This document shows positions 7,420-44,134 of a DNA stretch of 64,000 nucleotides, one piece after another (position 1 is the stretch's first letter; the number at the start of each line of letters is the position of its first letter). The stretch is from Candidatus Nanopelagicales bacterium. Lineage in GTDB: Bacteria; Actinomycetota; Actinomycetes; S36-B12; UBA5976. A program made the position numbers and the translations under genes. Below the pieces are notes generated by a model. The model saw only the letters and a list, made by a program, of their open reading frames with translations, searched no databases and was not told the DNA's origin. Where the stretch lies: assembly GCA_030834185.1 (NCBI GenBank), contig JAURFT010000003.1:1848-65847 (forward strand), written 5' to 3'.

Positions 7420-8199
7420 TTATTCATTAAAGGACTCAGGATTGAACCCAATTGGAGCAAAATCGGGTCGCTTTGGTTGTAGATGGTCACCTGAAGACCG
7501 ACCTTGCAGCCGCCGCAGCGCCCATGGCGCCATATGTTCTTTGAGCCATCTGGCATCGCTAATGCGACGCGCTGCCCAGTTTGGATCGGGAGGCAACTCA
7601 ATCTCCGGCCTACGCCAAGAGTCATCAGCTAGACCTAAGGCGTGCAACGCAGCTTTGGCCGCAAATTGATGACCAATACTTGACAGGTGCAGTCGGTCAT
7701 CGCTCCAGAATAAATCGTGATCAAATCCGCGCTCTGGCCAAAAGTCCACAACACTGCAATCGTATTTAGCAGCTAATTTAATAGTTTCATGATTCAAAAA
7801 CCGCAATCTTTCTCTAACTCCAGCCAGTTGTCCTCGATTTTCAGGGTCACCAAAAGCAACCACAAGAACATGAGCCCCTGATCTTCGCAGCTGCGAAATT
7901 CCATGCTCATAAAGTTTGATCACATTAACTGGATCCCAGTTTCGCCGCAGCGCATCATTTACACCGGCAGCAATAGTTACAAGATCGGGTTTCATTTCCA
8001 TAGCAAGCGGAATCTGTTCGTTAATAATTCGATTCATTTTTCTGCCACGTACAGCTAAATTGGCATATTTAAATTCTGAATCTGAAATCGCTAATTTTTC
8101 AGCAGTTCGATCTGCCCAACCACGATATGTGCCATCTGGGTAGGGATCAGAAAGCCCTTCCGAAAACGAATCACCTAAGGCTAGGTATTTTCCCCACAT
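7420..8199 (-). CDS. SGNH/GDSL-family hydrolase
   Basis: Block I LALGDSFSEG, block III AAGVND and block V DRLHLS. Confidence 0.8.
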   Translation of the reverse strand: MWGKYLALGDSFSEGLSDPYPDGTYRGWADRTAEKLAISDSEFKYANLAVRGRKMNRIINEQIPLAMEMKPDLVTIAAGVNDALRRNWDPVNVIKLYEHGISQLRRSGAHVLVVAFGDPENRGQLAGVRERLRFLNHETIKLAAKYDCSVVDFWPERGFDHDLFWSDDRLHLSSIGHQFAAKAALHALGLADDSWRRPEIELPPDPNWAARRISDARWLKEHMAPWALRRLQGRSSGDHLQPKRPDFAPIGFNPESFNE

Positions 8200-8364
8200 G
8201 ATCTAAGTGTATTTAAGGAAGCAGGCCTTCTTCTCGCGCCTGCTTGTATAACTGAGTTTTAATTATCGAGGCTGACGACGAGATGAAGGAGAGCGTCAAT
8301 AGGTTTGACATAGTTGAGGACTTTACCAACATACATATCCGTTGCTGAATAAATCATGGATCAG

Positions 8365-8979
8365 TTAAACATAGTCTCTAACGAATTGAGCAATTGCTTC
8401 TGCCATCATCTGCACAGCAATCGCAGCAAGCAGTAGTCCTGCTAGTTTTGTTGCAACAGTTACGCCACCCACTTTGAGCACTTTCATGATTGGAACAGCA
8501 AACCTCATGACGGCATATAGCACCAGATGCACGAGCAATATAGCTATAGCGATGGCACTGTAATCTAAAGCAGACTCAGCTTGACGAACAAAAACGATTG
8601 TTGCTGCAATAGCGCCAGGGCCGGCCAGTAAAGGAGTGCCAAGTGGCACCAACGCAACACTTACATCACTAATTTTTGTGGGTTCTGAATCTTTTCCAGT
8701 TAATAATTCCAGCGCCACAAGTAATAAAAGTAATCCACCTGAGGCTTGCAGTGCTGGCAGCGAGATATTCAAAAATCCTAAAATTTGATCACCAAAAATC
8801 GCGAACGCAACAATGACGCTAAAGGCCGTTAAAACAGCTTGCCTTGCGAGCTTCTTTTGTTTTGCAGGCGGCTGGTTGCTGACTAATCCCATAAAAACCG
8901 GCATAGTTCCAGGTGGGTCCATAATCACCAACAGCGTGACAAAAACTGTAAAGCCCAAAGTTAATATTGCAGTATCCAT
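8365..8979 (-). CDS. MarC-family integral membrane protein
   Basis: 204 aa with about 6 TM segments. The N-terminal IMDPPG motif is typical of the MarC/UPF0056 family. Confidence 0.75.
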   Translation of the reverse strand: MDTAILTLGFTVFVTLLVIMDPPGTMPVFMGLVSNQPPAKQKKLARQAVLTAFSVIVAFAIFGDQILGFLNISLPALQASGGLLLLLVALELLTGKDSEPTKISDVSVALVPLGTPLLAGPGAIAATIVFVRQAESALDYSAIAIAILLVHLVLYAVMRFAVPIMKVLKVGGVTVATKLAGLLLAAIAVQMMAEAIAQFVRDYV

Positions 8980-9870
8980 TTAGTCTGGGTAAACCGATCC
9001 GTCACCAGCTGGACTTGAGTTAAGTCGAGCTAGCTGATCATCAGTTAACTTAATATCCATACTTGCGATGGATGATTTTGCTGTAGAAATTTTTGTGAAG
9101 CCCGGAATTGGAACCATGCTTGGTGATTGCAGCTTTAACCATCGCAGCGCTATCTGTTGGGCTGTAGCTCCAACTTCATTTGCAACTTGCTGAAATTTTG
9201 GATACAACTCACCAAGATTCTTAGCGTCGTTCTCGCCACCTAGTGGCGACCAAGCCAAAAACGCAATTTCATCTCGGGCGCAGCGCTCGAGAACATCTGT
9301 GTGATCTCTGAAACGCGGGCTGCGCTCATTCTCAATTGCTGCAATCATCCCGCCAGTTTCTTGCTGCGCAATATCGTATTCGAGGGCAGTTACGTTCGAG
9401 AAGCCAATTCGTTTTGCAAGTCCGGCTTGATGCACCGCTACCATGGCCTTTGCTTGCTCGGCGAATGGTCGAGTGCGGTCAATTCTGTGGTGAAGAATTA
9501 AATCGGGAACAAAGCCTAATTTTTTTCCAGAGGCTTCAGCTGCCCGGAGAAGATGTTCTTTGCTGCCATTTCTGGACCACTGGGTTCCTTCACGAGTTAG
9601 TCCATTTTTGGTTACTACAACAATGTTTTCGCGTTCGCCATCCCATTGATCAAGCGCTTCGCGTACCACATTTTCATTATGCCCAATTTGATCAGCGCTA
9701 GGCGCATATACATCTGCGGTGTTGAGCAAGCTAATGCCGGAATTTAGGCAGTAATGAAGAACCTCAACAGCTACATCCAGGCTTGCACCAGGACGCGAAA
9801 AAGGCATTACCCCTACGCCAATCTCTGAGATCAATTTAGTGCTGGTGTTTGGCTTTGAGAATTTTTGCAT
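8980..9870 (-). CDS. Aldo/keto reductase
   Basis: AKR-like layout: an N-terminal block ending in NTADVY and a C-terminal IPGFTK block. Confidence 0.75.
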   Translation of the reverse strand: MQKFSKPNTSTKLISEIGVGVMPFSRPGASLDVAVEVLHYCLNSGISLLNTADVYAPSADQIGHNENVVREALDQWDGERENIVVVTKNGLTREGTQWSRNGSKEHLLRAAEASGKKLGFVPDLILHHRIDRTRPFAEQAKAMVAVHQAGLAKRIGFSNVTALEYDIAQQETGGMIAAIENERSPRFRDHTDVLERCARDEIAFLAWSPLGGENDAKNLGELYPKFQQVANEVGATAQQIALRWLKLQSPSMVPIPGFTKISTAKSSIASMDIKLTDDQLARLNSSPAGDGSVYPD

Positions 9871-39964: not shown

Positions 39965-40365
39965 TGAAATCTGGTGGCATGCTTTATATGGCAGGAGCAC
40001 TTTTTTACTTCGCAGTTTCTGCAATTTATTTTGTTTGGACCGGTGAAGTTGTTGGCACAACTGGACTGTTGCTAACTGGCTTTCTAGCGCTGCTAACCGG
40101 CTTTTATGTGCTCTTTACAGTTCGTCGATTAGGTGAAGGTCCAGAAGATCTTGAAGATGCTGAGATCGCAGATGCTGATCCAGACTATGGTTTTTATTCA
40201 CCAAGCTCCTGGTGGCCGCTACCGGTGGCATTTAGCGCAGCGGTGATCTCAGTTGGGCTGATTTTTGCAGTCTGGCTAGTGCTGCTTGGTGTAATTACTT
40301 TGTTTATTAGCTTGGGCGGTTGGATGCTTGAGTACTACCGAGGCCCTAGGTTGCCTGAAGCTTAA
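39964..40365 (+). CDS. ctaF: Cytochrome c oxidase subunit IV (actinobacterial CtaF)
   Basis: 133 aa with 4 TM helices. Directly follows ctaD with a TGATG overlap. Confidence 0.8.
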   Translation: MKSGGMLYMAGALFYFAVSAIYFVWTGEVVGTTGLLLTGFLALLTGFYVLFTVRRLGEGPEDLEDAEIADADPDYGFYSPSSWWPLPVAFSAAVISVGLIFAVWLVLLGVITLFISLGGWMLEYYRGPRLPEA

Positions 40366-40993
40366 TAGTTGTAACCGCATTAGCAGAGATTTGTTGTGCC
40401 AGCCTGGCATTTAAGCTGGCAGCAGCTGCAGCGCCGATAAATAATGGCAAAGCTGCGCCAGCTTTTGCCGGCAGCAATTTACTTCCCACCTTAATAATTA
40501 CTCGCTGGGATAGTTTGTTGTTCAAATTCGCAAGAAAGTTATCCGCTACATCAGTTGTTTTGCTCAACTCATTTGGTTCGCCAAGAAATGAACTAAGCAC
40601 AGTAAGGCGTCTGAGTTCAATATCGTCTAACTGCAGGTCATGTAAGGCGGCAATTAATAAAATGTGATTAACGCTCACTTTGCCAAAAAAATATAGATCA
40701 GCGGCAGTGCTTCCTATAGTGCTTAAAAAACCAAAAAAGGGTGCAGCAGCTATCGCACCAGATGCTGCACCAGCTGCGCTAACTTGAATCAGGTAATTAT
40801 TTGTGGCGTTCTTAATAAGTTGGTCTTGGGTGAAGTTTGGATTTTCGCTGCGCAAGCGTGCTGCAGCTGCCCAGGACTTTGCATATTGATCAGCTATAGC
40901 AGCATCTCCACCTCGAAGGAAAACACTGCCTAGCTGTTTGACTGCATCAGATTTTGAGTTCACCTCAGAAGGGTAGATCATCACCTGTATCAA
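40346..40993 (-). CDS. Hypothetical protein, possibly EcsC-like; third gene of the nuclease operon
   Basis: 215 aa with two Gly/Ala-rich hydrophobic stretches (AAGAASGAIAAAPFFGFLSTIGSTAADLYFFG; AGAALPLFIGAAAAAS). The block IAALHDLQLDDIELRR recalls EcsC-family proteins. The start (TTG 40993 or ATG 40981) overlaps the end of the upstream gene. The 3' end overlaps ctaF by 20 nt. Confidence 0.4.
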   Translation of the reverse strand: MIQVMIYPSEVNSKSDAVKQLGSVFLRGGDAAIADQYAKSWAAAARLRSENPNFTQDQLIKNATNNYLIQVSAAGAASGAIAAAPFFGFLSTIGSTAADLYFFGKVSVNHILLIAALHDLQLDDIELRRLTVLSSFLGEPNELSKTTDVADNFLANLNNKLSQRVIIKVGSKLLPAKAGAALPLFIGAAAAASLNARLAQQISANAVTTIKLQAT

Positions 40994-42722
40994 CCGCTTC
41001 CACCAAGGCTAGGGCTCGGACTAACGCATCTATGGCAACAGGCTGCGTAGTTATGACCTCACCGGTAACCAGATCTACCTCAAGGCCGTCAGCTAGTTTC
41101 TCTGTAGTAGTTTGCGGATTAGTTACCCGCTGATCGCACCAAGCGCTAACCGGGCAGCTCAAGCAAGCTGTTCCCGGATTGGGTGCAAAGCTCTCATCAT
41201 GATGTAGCTGATCGAAATTTATGGCAATTGAACGGCGAGCAGCAAGCACGATGCTTGCATCTGCAACATCAAATGAAATTAGCTTTCCTGATTCAGGGGT
41301 TAATAGCTCCAATTCGACAAATCCGCCGACCTCTTCTTGTATGCAAATTGCAAATGCAACCTGCGGATACAACAATAAATATTCATTAGCCGTTAGTTCT
41401 TGAATAACGGCTGTAGTTTTTAATTCACGCCAAATTGGCACACCAGCTCGAGTGCCAAGCTCATCAGCTCGAGTTGTGATTACCACATCAGCATCGCTAT
41501 CCCAAACCGTCTTAGATTGCTCGCTTTCTAGTTTGGTATAACTGTGTTGATATGGGCAGAGCGCAAAATGACTAGTTATCCAGTTGCGAGCTTGATCTAG
41601 ATAGGTTATTGGCCAACCCAGACTTTCTGCTATTTCACCCAGCTGTCCAGCTGGCAGGTCAGCGGCGGTGCAGGCTTGTTCGCGTTGGTGCGCTTTCATG
41701 ATCCATTCATGAACCGCGTTACCTCGATCGATGGCCGCATTTGATTCGAAAGCTTTTTTAGGAAGTTTCAAGACATATGTTAAGAAATACTGATAGTTAC
41801 ACCTTTGATACGAACTTAGCATCGAGCGCGAGAGGGATTTAGAGATTTTACCTGCGGTTGGAAGTCCTAGGAATCCTGGAATTTTTACAATTGCAGGGCA
41901 ACTAATTCGAAACCGACACTCAACGCAGTTATTGCCTGGCTGAAATTCAGGAGCCAACAAAAAATCTTGAACAATGGTTGAAACTCCGCCAACAAATGCC
42001 GCCGCAGATGACGCATCCCCATCAAAAAGCGTGGCAGCTGAACTATCCAAGCAACCAATTTGGCGCACTCTAACTCTGAGCGGGGGATTAGTTGGCAGCG
42101 TCTGGTGTGGGTCGGTCCAGCGGGCAATCGGCCCATCGGTGATGGCCCCATTTAATAAAATATTTACAGCCGCTATCAATTGGTTTCTATCTCGAGTAGT
42201 TTGGGCATCTCGATAGCAGAATAATCTAAGTTCTCTAATGGTTTTATCTACGCTTTGATAAAAAACACCCCAGTTGGTGAGCTCTAATCGCTGATTATCA
42301 GTAGTTGCGACACAAACAAAATCTGCAGTTGGCTGCATCACTTGGTCAACAGCTAAATCTTCAGCAGCAAAATCTTCAGTGGCATTTAGGGCATTTTGCA
42401 CCATTGTTTTTGCAGCTAATAAACTCGGTTCAGTCGCATCAGTACCAAGCTCTGCCGCAATTACTTCAGCTAGATTCGTCGGTGTTCGCTGTGCTGCTAA
42501 CACAGTGCGCGCTGCACCTAATAAAAATACTGCTCGGGGATCTTTGCGCTGGGACCAATCGCGGGCCTCGGTGTAAAGTCCAACATAGGCTTTAGCAACT
42601 TTTTCGACAGCGCAGCTTCCAGTTACATTTTTAAGGGCAGATGAACTAACTCGGATTAATGATGCCGATCCATTAGTTTTCCATGGTGGTTGCCACAGTT
42701 GTAGATCAGCTAGATTAATCAT
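40965..42722 (-). CDS. Tandem two-module PD-(D/E)XK (Cas4/AddB-type, 4-Cys) nuclease-like protein with an SSB-tail-like C-terminus
   Basis: Module 2: C308, GNAVH338, D420, E433-L-K435, C520-x2-C523-x5-C529. Module 1: C37 and C266-x2-C269-x5-C275, but D134...E147-L-T149 (no Lys). Ends ...DTGDDLPF. Confidence 0.6.
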   Translation of the reverse strand: MINLADLQLWQPPWKTNGSASLIRVSSSALKNVTGSCAVEKVAKAYVGLYTEARDWSQRKDPRAVFLLGAARTVLAAQRTPTNLAEVIAAELGTDATEPSLLAAKTMVQNALNATEDFAAEDLAVDQVMQPTADFVCVATTDNQRLELTNWGVFYQSVDKTIRELRLFCYRDAQTTRDRNQLIAAVNILLNGAITDGPIARWTDPHQTLPTNPPLRVRVRQIGCLDSSAATLFDGDASSAAAFVGGVSTIVQDFLLAPEFQPGNNCVECRFRISCPAIVKIPGFLGLPTAGKISKSLSRSMLSSYQRCNYQYFLTYVLKLPKKAFESNAAIDRGNAVHEWIMKAHQREQACTAADLPAGQLGEIAESLGWPITYLDQARNWITSHFALCPYQHSYTKLESEQSKTVWDSDADVVITTRADELGTRAGVPIWRELKTTAVIQELTANEYLLLYPQVAFAICIQEEVGGFVELELLTPESGKLISFDVADASIVLAARRSIAINFDQLHHDESFAPNPGTACLSCPVSAWCDQRVTNPQTTTEKLADGLEVDLVTGEVITTQPVAIDALVRALALVEAVDTGDDLPF

Positions 42723-43663
42723 TATTCACTCAATTCAAGCGGGAGTAAATCTAGCGGGTTTGGTTCAGCTGCTACGGCGGAAATTTTGCGCTGCAAACCA
42801 GTTTGGCTTAACAGCTGCTGCGATGCGGCTGAACCAGGTGGTGGTGAAGTTTTTTGGTGGGCGGGGCATACTGGTTTAAACGGGCAGTAACTGCACAGCC
42901 GAGATGGTTGCGCTAGCCATTTGGCGGTTTTAAATGACTCATCAATCTGAGAGCGAGTTTCCACAAGCACCTCAGTTACCCGCTCTATTGCCGCTGGATA
43001 CACAGGTCTGCGGACAGCTTGTTTATCCGGAAGAAAAAGCAGCTCAACTTCTTCAACGCCTGGATCTGAACCATCATTTATCGCTGCTGCATAAAACATT
43101 ACCTGCTGCACATAATCATCCAGCGGAGCTCCCGTGGGCTTTTTCCCAGTCTTGTAGTCGGTAACTCGGTCAACTGGTTTTCTAGTTCTACGATCTAACC
43201 TGCCATGAAATAAAACGCCAGCAAGCTGGGCATCTACATCAGATTCGATATCTTTTAAATCAACCTCAATCTCAGTTGGTTTCTCAAGCTCAAAATATCC
43301 CGTGAGTGCTAAATCAGCTCGTTTGCGAACATCGTCACGATTTGCACCACGGCCTAGATGTTCATACTCAGGCTTCAGTAACAAATCTTTACCAATGGTG
43401 CCCATGATCGCCCAAGCGTTCTCAAAGCTTCGATCAGGCTGTGGTAATCGATACAAGCCTTCTAAAGTGTCATGCACAATTGTTCCAGCCGCTAAAGCTG
43501 GGGTTGGTGGTTCGCGCCAACCCAGTAAATATGAAAACCAATATCGCAGCGCACATTTCCGAAAGGCTGAAATCTGGGTTGGCGATAATCTGATACTGGG
43601 ATTGCCAGCATCAGTTAAATCAACATCTACTTCAATAGATTGAAATCCGTTCCTTGCGCTCAT
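42722..43663 (-). CDS. Cas4/AddB-type PD-(D/E)XK nuclease with a 4-Cys (Fe-S) signature
   Basis: C37, G60-x3-H64, GRLD157, D169-Y-K171, Q187-x3-Y191 and C257-x2-C260-x5-C266. TAATG overlap with the downstream gene. Confidence 0.75.
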   Translation of the reverse strand: MSARNGFQSIEVDVDLTDAGNPSIRLSPTQISAFRKCALRYWFSYLLGWREPPTPALAAGTIVHDTLEGLYRLPQPDRSFENAWAIMGTIGKDLLLKPEYEHLGRGANRDDVRKRADLALTGYFELEKPTEIEVDLKDIESDVDAQLAGVLFHGRLDRRTRKPVDRVTDYKTGKKPTGAPLDDYVQQVMFYAAAINDGSDPGVEEVELLFLPDKQAVRRPVYPAAIERVTEVLVETRSQIDESFKTAKWLAQPSRLCSYCPFKPVCPAHQKTSPPPGSAASQQLLSQTGLQRKISAVAAEPNPLDLLPLELSE

Positions 43664-43747: not shown

Positions 43748-44134
43748 TTAGGAATTTGCGCCGCTTAAGGTAAGGGCAAGCTGATCCCAGCGGGCCATTT
43801 CACAGCCATCAGTTCGAGTAAATTTGCGTTTGATCGGCGCACCAGCCCAGCGCCCAGTAACAATTGCCGTTTGTTCGCCGCCGTAAATTTTGGTGCAGAT
43901 CTCAGATTTTGGTGGCTTCTTAAATGGCAGCACTGCCGCTTTAAGTTCAGTGCATGCCAGTTTCGCCGCTGGATGGTTGCCAGCAGCAGGTCGACATTGC
44001 AATCTCCAATGCACAGCTTTTGCATCTGCAGCTGATTTATAGCTAATTTTTAGCTGGTAGTTCTGATTTGCAAAACTAGGGGAGAAGCTCAAATTAAAAC
44101 AACAAACTAAAACAACAATAACTAATTTTCGCAT
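43748..44134 (-). CDS. Secreted subtilisin-inhibitor-like (SSI-domain) protein
   Basis: A signal peptide followed by the SSI pattern LQCRPAAGNHPAAKLAC...CTKIYGGEQTAIVTGRWAGAPIKRKFTRTDGCEMARW, with two Cys pairs. Confidence 0.7.
   Translation of the reverse strand: MRKLVIVVLVCCFNLSFSPSFANQNYQLKISYKSAADAKAVHWRLQCRPAAGNHPAAKLACTELKAAVLPFKKPPKSEICTKIYGGEQTAIVTGRWAGAPIKRKFTRTDGCEMARWDQLALTLSGANS

Follow-up and report, generated by a model that had tools for sequence, protein, structure and literature searches.

A predicted iron-sulfur nuclease encoded by Nanopelagicales (acI) bacteria ends in DDLPF, a free C-terminal peptide of the class that bacterial SSBs, the proteins that bind single-stranded DNA, carry as their tip. 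Its gene, open reading frame (ORF) B, lies on the minus strand at 40965..42722 of a 64,000-nucleotide stretch of contig JAURFT010000003.1 from a Candidatus Nanopelagicales bacterium, hereafter referred to as the window, and encodes 585 amino acids with the C-terminus ...VEAVDTGDDLPF. Judged by its sequence, ORF B is a two-lobed nuclease of the Cas4/AdnAB type that matches the accessory nuclease of pPIWI-RE defence operons, and it is paired with a second nuclease gene, ORF A. The SSB tip, which is DDDIPF in Escherichia coli (E. coli) and DDDLPF in Bacillus, serves genome maintenance in bacteria as its central hub peptide, and it is usually regarded as a feature of SSB proteins. Here, a known docking motif is found on a new carrier, where it is the mark of a whole branch of a nuclease family, the branch without a helicase partner gene of its own in the operon. 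We propose, with a probability of about 0.55, that the tip serves to dock the two nucleases, A and B, on another protein that has a pocket for SSB tips; this protein may plausibly be a host helicase.

The motif is the following.

40968..40982, minus strand: the tip D581-D-L-P-F585, a short linear motif of the form acidic-x-Pro-Phe-COOH (sequence, orthologues, wider family, and a predicted local distance difference test score, pLDDT, below 50).

The minus-strand letters gat aca ggt gat gat cta ccc ttc tga read D578-T-G-D-D-L-P-F585-stop, with codons D578 to F585 at 40991..40968 and the stop codon at 40967..40965. The DTGDDLPF end that an earlier note on this DNA had placed at 40968-40991 is thus borne out by direct reading. 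The stop codon directly follows F585, which leaves a free alpha-carboxylate, and Pro-Phe (PF) are likewise the final two residues in 53/53 of the PF-bearing members of the clade described below. A free C-terminus is the feature that SSB-tip pockets recognise. By chance, the amino-acid composition of the window would give a [DE][DE]xPF end to 1.9e-5 of proteins and a PF end of whatever kind to 0.2%; among the 48 long ORFs of the window, ORF B alone has a terminal phenylalanine. We also considered the tip as a beta-clamp-binding motif of the QLxLF type and dropped this candidate, the invariant proline at position -2 and the acidic residues being unfit for it.

DD[L/V]PF is the end of every ORF B orthologue (11/11, 60-95% identical), whereas just before the tip two or three residues vary (TG, AG, VV, QG, QV, SV, QT, ES, TT, NI). 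These orthologues were found only in Nanopelagicales (acI) genomes from freshwater metagenome assemblies. Conservation extends far beyond them, always at a free C-terminus, and the refutation that the earlier note had set out, a tail that orthologues do not keep, does not apply. A profile search of 1.84 billion representative proteins returned a family of 315 members, and tip statistics were drawn from the 145 complete sequences among the 150 members listed of the 315. PF is the end of 56 of these 145. In the 56 PF-ending representatives, in which position -2 is P and position -1 is F without exception (56/56), D and E dominate positions -4 to -6 and position -3 is mostly P, I, A, D, F or L. 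The tips range over DDEPPF, DDDPPPF, DEDIPF, DDDVPF, EDDLPF, DEEFPF and DDEPAPF, and exactly DDEPPF, the tip of mycobacterial SSBs, is found in several high-GC (guanine-plus-cytosine) relatives (P0018, P0056, P0093, P0123).

Neighbour-joining trees were built from 130 core sequences, from which the tails had been removed beforehand, with 50 bootstraps. The counts in midpoint-rooted clades were unstable in the bootstraps, and an unrooted bipartition was used instead. The family divides 65/65, a bipartition recovered in 50/50 bootstraps, and the PF end occurs in 53/65 sequences on one side and in 0/65 on the other (Fisher p = 8e-25); all 53 are acidic-x-Pro-Phe-COOH enders. Because PF is confined to one side of this bipartition, the tip was acquired once and then retained across lineages that are now only 25-30% identical. 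The earlier note had warned of a chance resemblance; the 11/11 orthologues and the 53/65 against 0/65 of the clade comparison exclude it. The phage collection searched yielded no family members, and only four plasmid records carry one. A scan of viral contigs with the DNA pattern for CxWCPVxxWCP gave one match, which was judged to be due to chance.

The remaining features of ORF B and of its two neighbours, all on the minus strand of the window, are as follows; residues of ORF B are numbered from Met1.

41838..42722, minus strand: N-terminal lobe of ORF B, a second nuclease-like lobe (invariant and near-invariant columns, PADLOC match over residues 143-534, AlphaFold2).
41133..41837, minus strand: C-terminal lobe of ORF B, an active-looking Cas4/RecB-type PD-(D/E)XK nuclease (Pfam, invariant columns, Foldseek).
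40983..41135, minus strand: C-terminal extension of ORF B, residues ~530-580, followed by the tip (orthologue alignment, AlphaFold2).
42722..43663, minus strand: ORF A, a 313-residue, single-lobe, Cas4-like iron-sulfur nuclease (Pfam PDDEXK_1 with E 5e-30, Cas4 match).
40346..40981, minus strand: ORF C, ~211 residues, of no recognisable family, with its ATG inside the tip codons of ORF B.

The sole Pfam match of ORF B is PDDEXK_1, over residues 296-530 with E 6e-17, and the PADLOC model PprPDDEXK aligns to residues 143-534 (profile 68-443 of 449, E 6.8e-49). In an alignment of 73 sequences, D420, E433-x-K435 and the cysteines C308 and C520-x2-C523-x5-C529 of the C-terminal lobe are invariant or nearly so. 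The lobe thus combines the PD-(D/E)XK motif with the one N-terminal and three C-terminal cysteines of the Cas4/RecB iron-staple, and D420, E433-x-K435 and the four cysteines are predicted to form a catalytic active site of the Cas4/AddB type. The N-terminal lobe has a cysteine cluster of its own, C37 and C266-x2-C269-x5-C275, and in it E164-x-R166 replaces the expected E-x-K. These two features point to an internal duplication in which this Cas4-like lobe was inactivated but has an iron-sulfur cluster of its own; it is probably non-catalytic. The AlphaFold2 (AF2) model made from the 73-sequence alignment shows two lobes, both confident, with a mean pLDDT of 92.4 and a predicted template-modelling score (pTM) of 0.89; it was used in place of a model from 12 sequences only, whose pLDDT was 59. 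The top Foldseek matches are ACE1, AdnAB, RecE, Cas4 SSO0001 and AddB. ORF B is not an SSB protein: the OB-fold domain PF00436 was not matched in Pfam, and the fold is Cas4/AdnAB-like. Family searches, including Pfam, detected no helicase or ATPase domain in ORF A or ORF B, and the matches to AdnAB and AddAB are confined to nuclease domains.

Beyond the C-terminal lobe, ORF B carries an extension with a conserved hairpin motif, DGLEVDLxTGEII, and a helix, VDALxRALALVE, after which come the two or three variable residues and the tip. In the AF2 model, the hairpin motif corresponds to strands 540-542 and 548-550 and the helix to residues 564-574. The elements 'D..TGE[ILV]' and 'RALxLxA' recur in distant tipped relatives, and the extension is missing from the tail-less clade; the linker that follows the cysteine cluster has 16-80 residues in other clade members. 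The block-mean pLDDT is 82-85 over residues 531-570 and 73 over residues 571-580, and residues 581-585, DDLPF, are the only segment of the model below 50. Because only these five residues fall below this value in an otherwise confident model, the tip is predicted to be free and not docked on its own protein. It is also predicted to be held close to the protein body, unlike an SSB tip, which sits on a long linker.

This geometry bears on the main rival explanation, in which the tip would be an autoinhibitory pseudo-substrate: the acidic, Phe-ended peptide would fold into the single-stranded DNA (ssDNA) channel or a basic groove of ORF B or ORF A, and would compete with DNA until displaced by a substrate or a signal. 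Acidic tails that end in an aromatic residue are classic mimics of DNA, and the tails of E. coli SSB and of T7 gp2.5 compete on their own DNA-binding clefts. The tip of ORF B is tethered near the protein body with no long linker, and Cas4-type cores do have a basic ssDNA channel (PMC12094033). However, AF2 places the tip nowhere with confidence, and a generic DNA mimic would need neither a terminal Pro-Phe in 53/53 clade members nor an exact DDEPPF. We consider autoinhibition unlikely as the explanation of the tip, although it is compatible with docking, both being things that SSB tips do.

The sample of gene contexts covered about 15 lineages, five of them tail-less and about ten of the tip-bearing clade. 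In all five tail-less cases (Nocardiopsis, P0012, a Streptomyces rimosus plasmid, P0013 and P0094) the nuclease is the first gene of a four-gene operon, in which the PD-(D/E)XK nuclease is followed by a restriction endonuclease (REase) with a Y domain, a helicase of ~1,100 residues with a Z domain, and pPIWI-RE. The helicase with the Z domain belongs to the DinG family and was described by Burroughs, Iyer and Aravind 2013, whose account gives the pPIWI-RE island three genes and has no mention of this nuclease (PMC3702460). Around the tip-bearing clade, the operon of pPIWI-RE, REase and DinG-type helicase was found in 0 of about 10 lineages. ORF B in the window likewise has no pPIWI-RE operon beside it; its neighbours are ORF A, ORF C, a subtilisin-inhibitor-like (SSI-like) protein, a major facilitator superfamily (MFS) transporter, and cta and qcr genes. 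In the lineages sampled, helicase-operon context and tip are completely mutually exclusive. The earlier note had suggested that the tip makes up for the missing motor gene, and this contrast (tail-less members with a DinG-type helicase in 5/5, tipped members never) gives the idea indirect support, while the pocket binding that it presupposes is something we infer.

The tipped nuclease itself is found in two kinds of arrangement, most often with a Cas4-like nuclease of ~300 residues, ORF A, as its conserved partner. The A-B pair with overlapping stop and start codons occurs in six lineages, acI and five others (L219, L220, L221, L222 and L226), in unrelated chromosomal neighbourhoods; in L221 it sits inside the dcw cluster, at a GC content of 0.39. 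In four lineages (L215, L216, L224 and L227), ORF B is instead accompanied by a protein of ~263 residues with no assigned function and by an ImmA/IrrE peptidase. Two of these four are on plasmids, of Rhodococcus antarcticus, where the protein has the end DEDEPPPF, and Streptomyces albidoflavus, where the homologue has lost PF; a third adjoins a Type ISP restriction enzyme. The tipped A-B pair of L226 is convergent with a DinG/YoaA-family helicase gene.

Some of these neighbourhoods hold further genes of note. The helicase gene of L226 (8841-11156) is split into two ORFs, possibly by an assembly frameshift, and genes for a CoiA-like nuclease, an Endonuclease VII and a 5'-nucleotidase lie upstream in the same contig. 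In L222, a protein of 509 residues with HIRAN and DUF2510 domains (7887-9416) is encoded directly downstream of the tipped A-B pair, and a TIR-domain gene is nearby, which hints at a neighbourhood of DNA-end sensing or defence.

These arrangements also bear on the possibility that the tip is an assembly peptide within the system, which would bind ORF A, or ORF C in Nanopelagicales, and so hold the complex together. ORFs A and B are coupled in translation and have been conserved together in no fewer than six lineages, and the start of ORF C overlaps the tip codons. Yet tipped ORF B also occurs without ORF A, on the Rhodococcus plasmid and in L224 and L227, where it stands with the ~263-residue protein and the ImmA/IrrE peptidase, and ORF C accompanies A-B in Nanopelagicales only. 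Because the neighbours change around the same constant motif, this explanation is weakened, and we regard it as improbable.

The overlap with ORF C, which the earlier note had pointed out and which our reading confirms, needs consideration of its own. The ATG of ORF C at 40981..40979 lies inside GATGAT, in the +1 frame, in 8/8 Nanopelagicales loci, and a second candidate start (GTG or ATG) is present in 8/8 loci at 40963..40961, 1 nucleotide past the stop codon of ORF B. The tip codons are nearly invariant in these eight loci (GAT GAT CTA CC[CA] TTC), and their synonymous variation is reduced because the start of ORF C overlaps them. One could therefore suppose that the tip has no function in ORF B and was conserved for the sake of ORF C, or arose by chance. 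However, where the tip codons vary, the exchange of CCC and CCA leaves the residue of ORF B as it is and alters that of ORF C (P or H), the tip is kept in lineages with unrelated, non-overlapping downstream genes, and the chance expectation per protein is the very low one given above. The distribution of the tip over the family effectively refutes this explanation, which we hold to be extremely improbable. The overlap accounts for the low synonymous variation in acI, and not for the conservation of the protein across the family.

SSB tips from several sources were compared with that of ORF B. A search with the OB domain of Mycobacterium tuberculosis (M. tuberculosis), which returned only Mycobacterium, gave mycobacterial SSBs that end in DDEPPF in 104/120 cases. 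A scan of viral contigs with an SSB alignment provided 80 high-GC actinobacterial SSBs (GC 0.58-0.73), with x-E-P-P-F ends and EAPF and EPAF variants. Another 80 low-GC SSBs from many phyla have D or E at -5, mostly D or E at -4, then I, M, L or P, and then PF. SSBs of the host type were sought by scanning metagenomes with a low-GC codon pattern for GNLxxDPELRFT. The SSBs that this yielded are actinobacterial, have 44-46% GC and are encoded in the canonical rpsF-ssb-rpsR-rplI-dnaB operon, and proteins nearly identical to them are named Candidatus Nanopelagicaceae bacterium. PPF is the end of 104/111 full-length relatives of these Nanopelagicaceae SSBs, in tips such as ADEQPPF, SDDQPPF, ADDQPPF and SDDAPPF. 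The link between ORF B and this host SSB is at the level of order or family and not of one genome, and the tip type of the nuclease was matched to that of the host SSB for acI and Rhodococcus only.

The ORF B tip has the invariant Pro-Phe, the hydrophobic residue or proline before it and the at least two acidic residues of the SSB pattern. Because the SSB samples share this pattern while host SSBs end in PPF, the sequences place DDLPF in the SSB-tip class, close to the form of E. coli and Bacillus, and not as a copy of the host tip. The earlier note's description of the tip as a near-copy therefore stands for the pan-bacterial DDDIPF/DDDLPF and falls for the host SSBs, whose tips are [DE][DE][QA]PPF. 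In some high-GC relatives, those with DDEPPF, the nuclease tip is the same as the SSB tip of the lineage.

Two side observations concern SSBs themselves. The metagenome contigs L113 and L157 (GC 0.37) encode actinobacterial-type SSBs that end in ESEETPF and TNEEAPF, so that position -3 of the SSB tip varies within Actinobacteria. Furthermore, 80 contigs classed as viral in IMG/VR (L010-L089) carry SSB genes of actinobacterial type, with 76-89% identity to the OB domain of M. tuberculosis and, in almost every case, an xEPPF tip like that of the host. Either these are regions of prophage or host DNA, or the SSBs belong to phages and have retained the tip of the host.

The likeness to SSB is also what counts against a further possibility, that the tip is a C-terminal degradation or quality-control tag, read by a protease adaptor, which would limit a dangerous nuclease. 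The motif does stand at the extreme C-terminus with its last two residues strictly conserved, and nucleases of defence systems are often tightly controlled. But a PF-COOH degron would also degrade SSB, which is essential and abundant, and we know of no actinobacterial degron of this form. We judge this explanation very unlikely.

Our proposal is that DDLPF-COOH would be a functional short linear motif of the SSB-tip class, free from an otherwise folded protein. ORF B would be the large subunit of a motor-less two-nuclease module, in which ORF A contributes one lobe and ORF B two, and would descend from the PD-(D/E)XK accessory nuclease of pPIWI-RE defence operons. The terminal phenylalanine and its carboxylate, flanked by acids, would insert into an SSB-tip-binding pocket of another protein, and the tip would in this way link the pair of nucleases with one of the proteins in the SSB interactome of the host. 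The partner that we favour would be a helicase, for example of the DinG/YoaA type, that feeds ssDNA to the nuclease. Docking onto a protein with such a pocket, plausibly a helicase, is the most economical reading because Cas4-type cores need a helicase to act on duplex DNA, the tail-less clade brings one of DinG type, and the tipped clade has instead the peptide with which SSB draws in helicases and other clients. Taken alone, the identity of the partner as a helicase is nonetheless rather doubtful, and the competition with SSB that the earlier note also raised is no more than conjecture. As to its history, we offer only as a tentative scenario that a branch of the pPIWI-RE nucleases lost its Argonaute-like and DinG-type partners and became a chromosomal two-nuclease module, with an SSB-tail mimic that borrows a host helicase or another SSB client.

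Several findings weigh against docking. The tip is not identical to that of the resident SSB: ORF B orthologues end in DD[LV]PF, and the host tip differs from DDLPF at position -3 (P against L) and in the register of the acidic pair. If the pockets of this lineage are adapted to PPF, they may take up the nuclease tip poorly, or its binding partner may be something else. The long disordered linker of SSBs is lacking, the 50-residue extension being predicted to be folded. The tip is dispensable in some settings, because 12 members of the tipped clade, about a dozen losses, have no PF. The overlap with ORF C gives part of the local nucleotide conservation a second cause, and the sampling of gene contexts is modest.

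The locus is fixed in its synteny. The window has 45% GC; ctaC, ctaD and ctaF share one strand, and qcrB lies on the opposite one. The order is qcrB, an Atg22-like MFS transporter, the SSI-like protein, ORF A, ORF B and ORF C, then ctaF/D/C on the opposite strand, and it is the same in 7 further Nanopelagicales loci. The A-B pair is syntenic and apparently a core gene pair in Nanopelagicales (acI). The stop codon of ORF A overlaps the start of ORF B (TGATG), and the solved sequences closest to ORF A are AdnAB nuclease domains. ORF C has no match in Pfam, NCBIfam, PADLOC or PHROG, even at E = 5. The genes downstream of A-B pairs elsewhere differ in size and annotation, and a direct comparison of ORF C with the downstream gene of Rhodococcus found the two to be unrelated.

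A few further observations were made on these neighbours. In Nanopelagicales, the C-terminus of ORF A (42722-42770; also in L001, L004, L005 and L007) has a conserved end of the form [DE][FL]LP[LIM][ED][LM][SN][DE], for example DLLPLELSE, whose L-x-L-x-L spacing we take to be loosely like that of beta-clamp-binding hexapeptides. This acidic-hydrophobic end is weakly kept in distant homologues of ORF A, and a segment P.PGS..S...L...GL.R[RK] just past the cysteine cluster is common to all ORF A homologues compared. ORF C has Ala/Gly-rich hydrophobic stretches. The SSI-like protein (43748-44134) has a signal-peptide-like N-terminus and is encoded directly upstream of A-B-C in every Nanopelagicales locus examined.

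In the searchable literature, we found no nuclease with an SSB-like tip; only DdrB, itself an ssDNA-binding protein, is described with an 'SSB-like C-terminal'. The family is catalogued only as a PADLOC model, and the A-B module, the tip and the split into two clades appear to be undescribed. If the tentative scenario above holds, ORF B would be the first example of a nuclease that mimics the SSB tip. The scenario would also point to a way in which a defence component came to be domesticated, or retained as a stealth defence, in bacteria that have streamlined genomes and are the most abundant in fresh water. A nuclease family with this peptide, carried over hundreds of millions of years in the helicase-less clade only, would mean that enzymes can join the SSB interactome by imitation and not by evolving a pocket. 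The tip would also offer a cheap, direct way to study by experiment an uncharacterised module that is related to the pPIWI-RE systems, themselves hardly studied.

Compared with known systems, the tip of ORF B agrees with the C-terminus of SSB in its position at the extreme end of the chain, in Pro-Phe-COOH, in the two or three acidic residues upstream and in the hydrophobic residue or proline at -3. It differs in its carrier, which is a nuclease and not an OB-fold ssDNA-binding protein, and in what precedes it, a folded extension of 50 residues where SSB has a long, disordered linker rich in Gly, Pro and Gln. Phage T7 offers a precedent for shared tails, in that the gp4 helicase-primase and the gp2.5 SSB have interchangeable acidic, Phe-ended tails that dock on the same partner surface. 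These tails are unlike the ORF B tip, since they belong to a phage system, follow no Pro-Phe rule and have a DNA polymerase as their partner.

PprPDDEXK (PADLOC PDLC02423) is homologous over both lobes, matching ORF B with E 7e-49 and the Nocardiopsis relative with 1e-104, and has the same cysteine clusters and D...ExK motif. ORF B, however, belongs to the sister clade; no gene for pPIWI-RE, REase or a helicase lies near it, its partner is ORF A, and it has acquired the C-terminal extension as well as the tip. The best structural match of the nuclease lobe is ACE1, of the Argonaute-associated Cas4 family (Protein Data Bank 9iab, 9iac; Foldseek E 6e-6, identity 12-13%). ACE1 is an iron-sulfur ssDNA endonuclease of the Cas4 family that works with a PIWI-fold protein and no helicase; it threads ssDNA and does not attack duplex DNA without a helicase (PMC12094033). 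Unlike ORF B, it is a single lobe of ~270 residues that dimerises with a long-A Argonaute, and no SSB-like tip has been reported for it. AdnAB and AddAB work with a pair of RecB/Cas4-type nuclease domains that have iron-staples, as ORFs A and B may do, but those enzymes have superfamily 1 (SF1) helicase/ATPase domains, which ORFs A and B lack. For the favoured kind of partner, E. coli provides a link to SSB, since the DinG-family helicase YoaA reaches SSB via chi (PMC12122834, PMC8378479).

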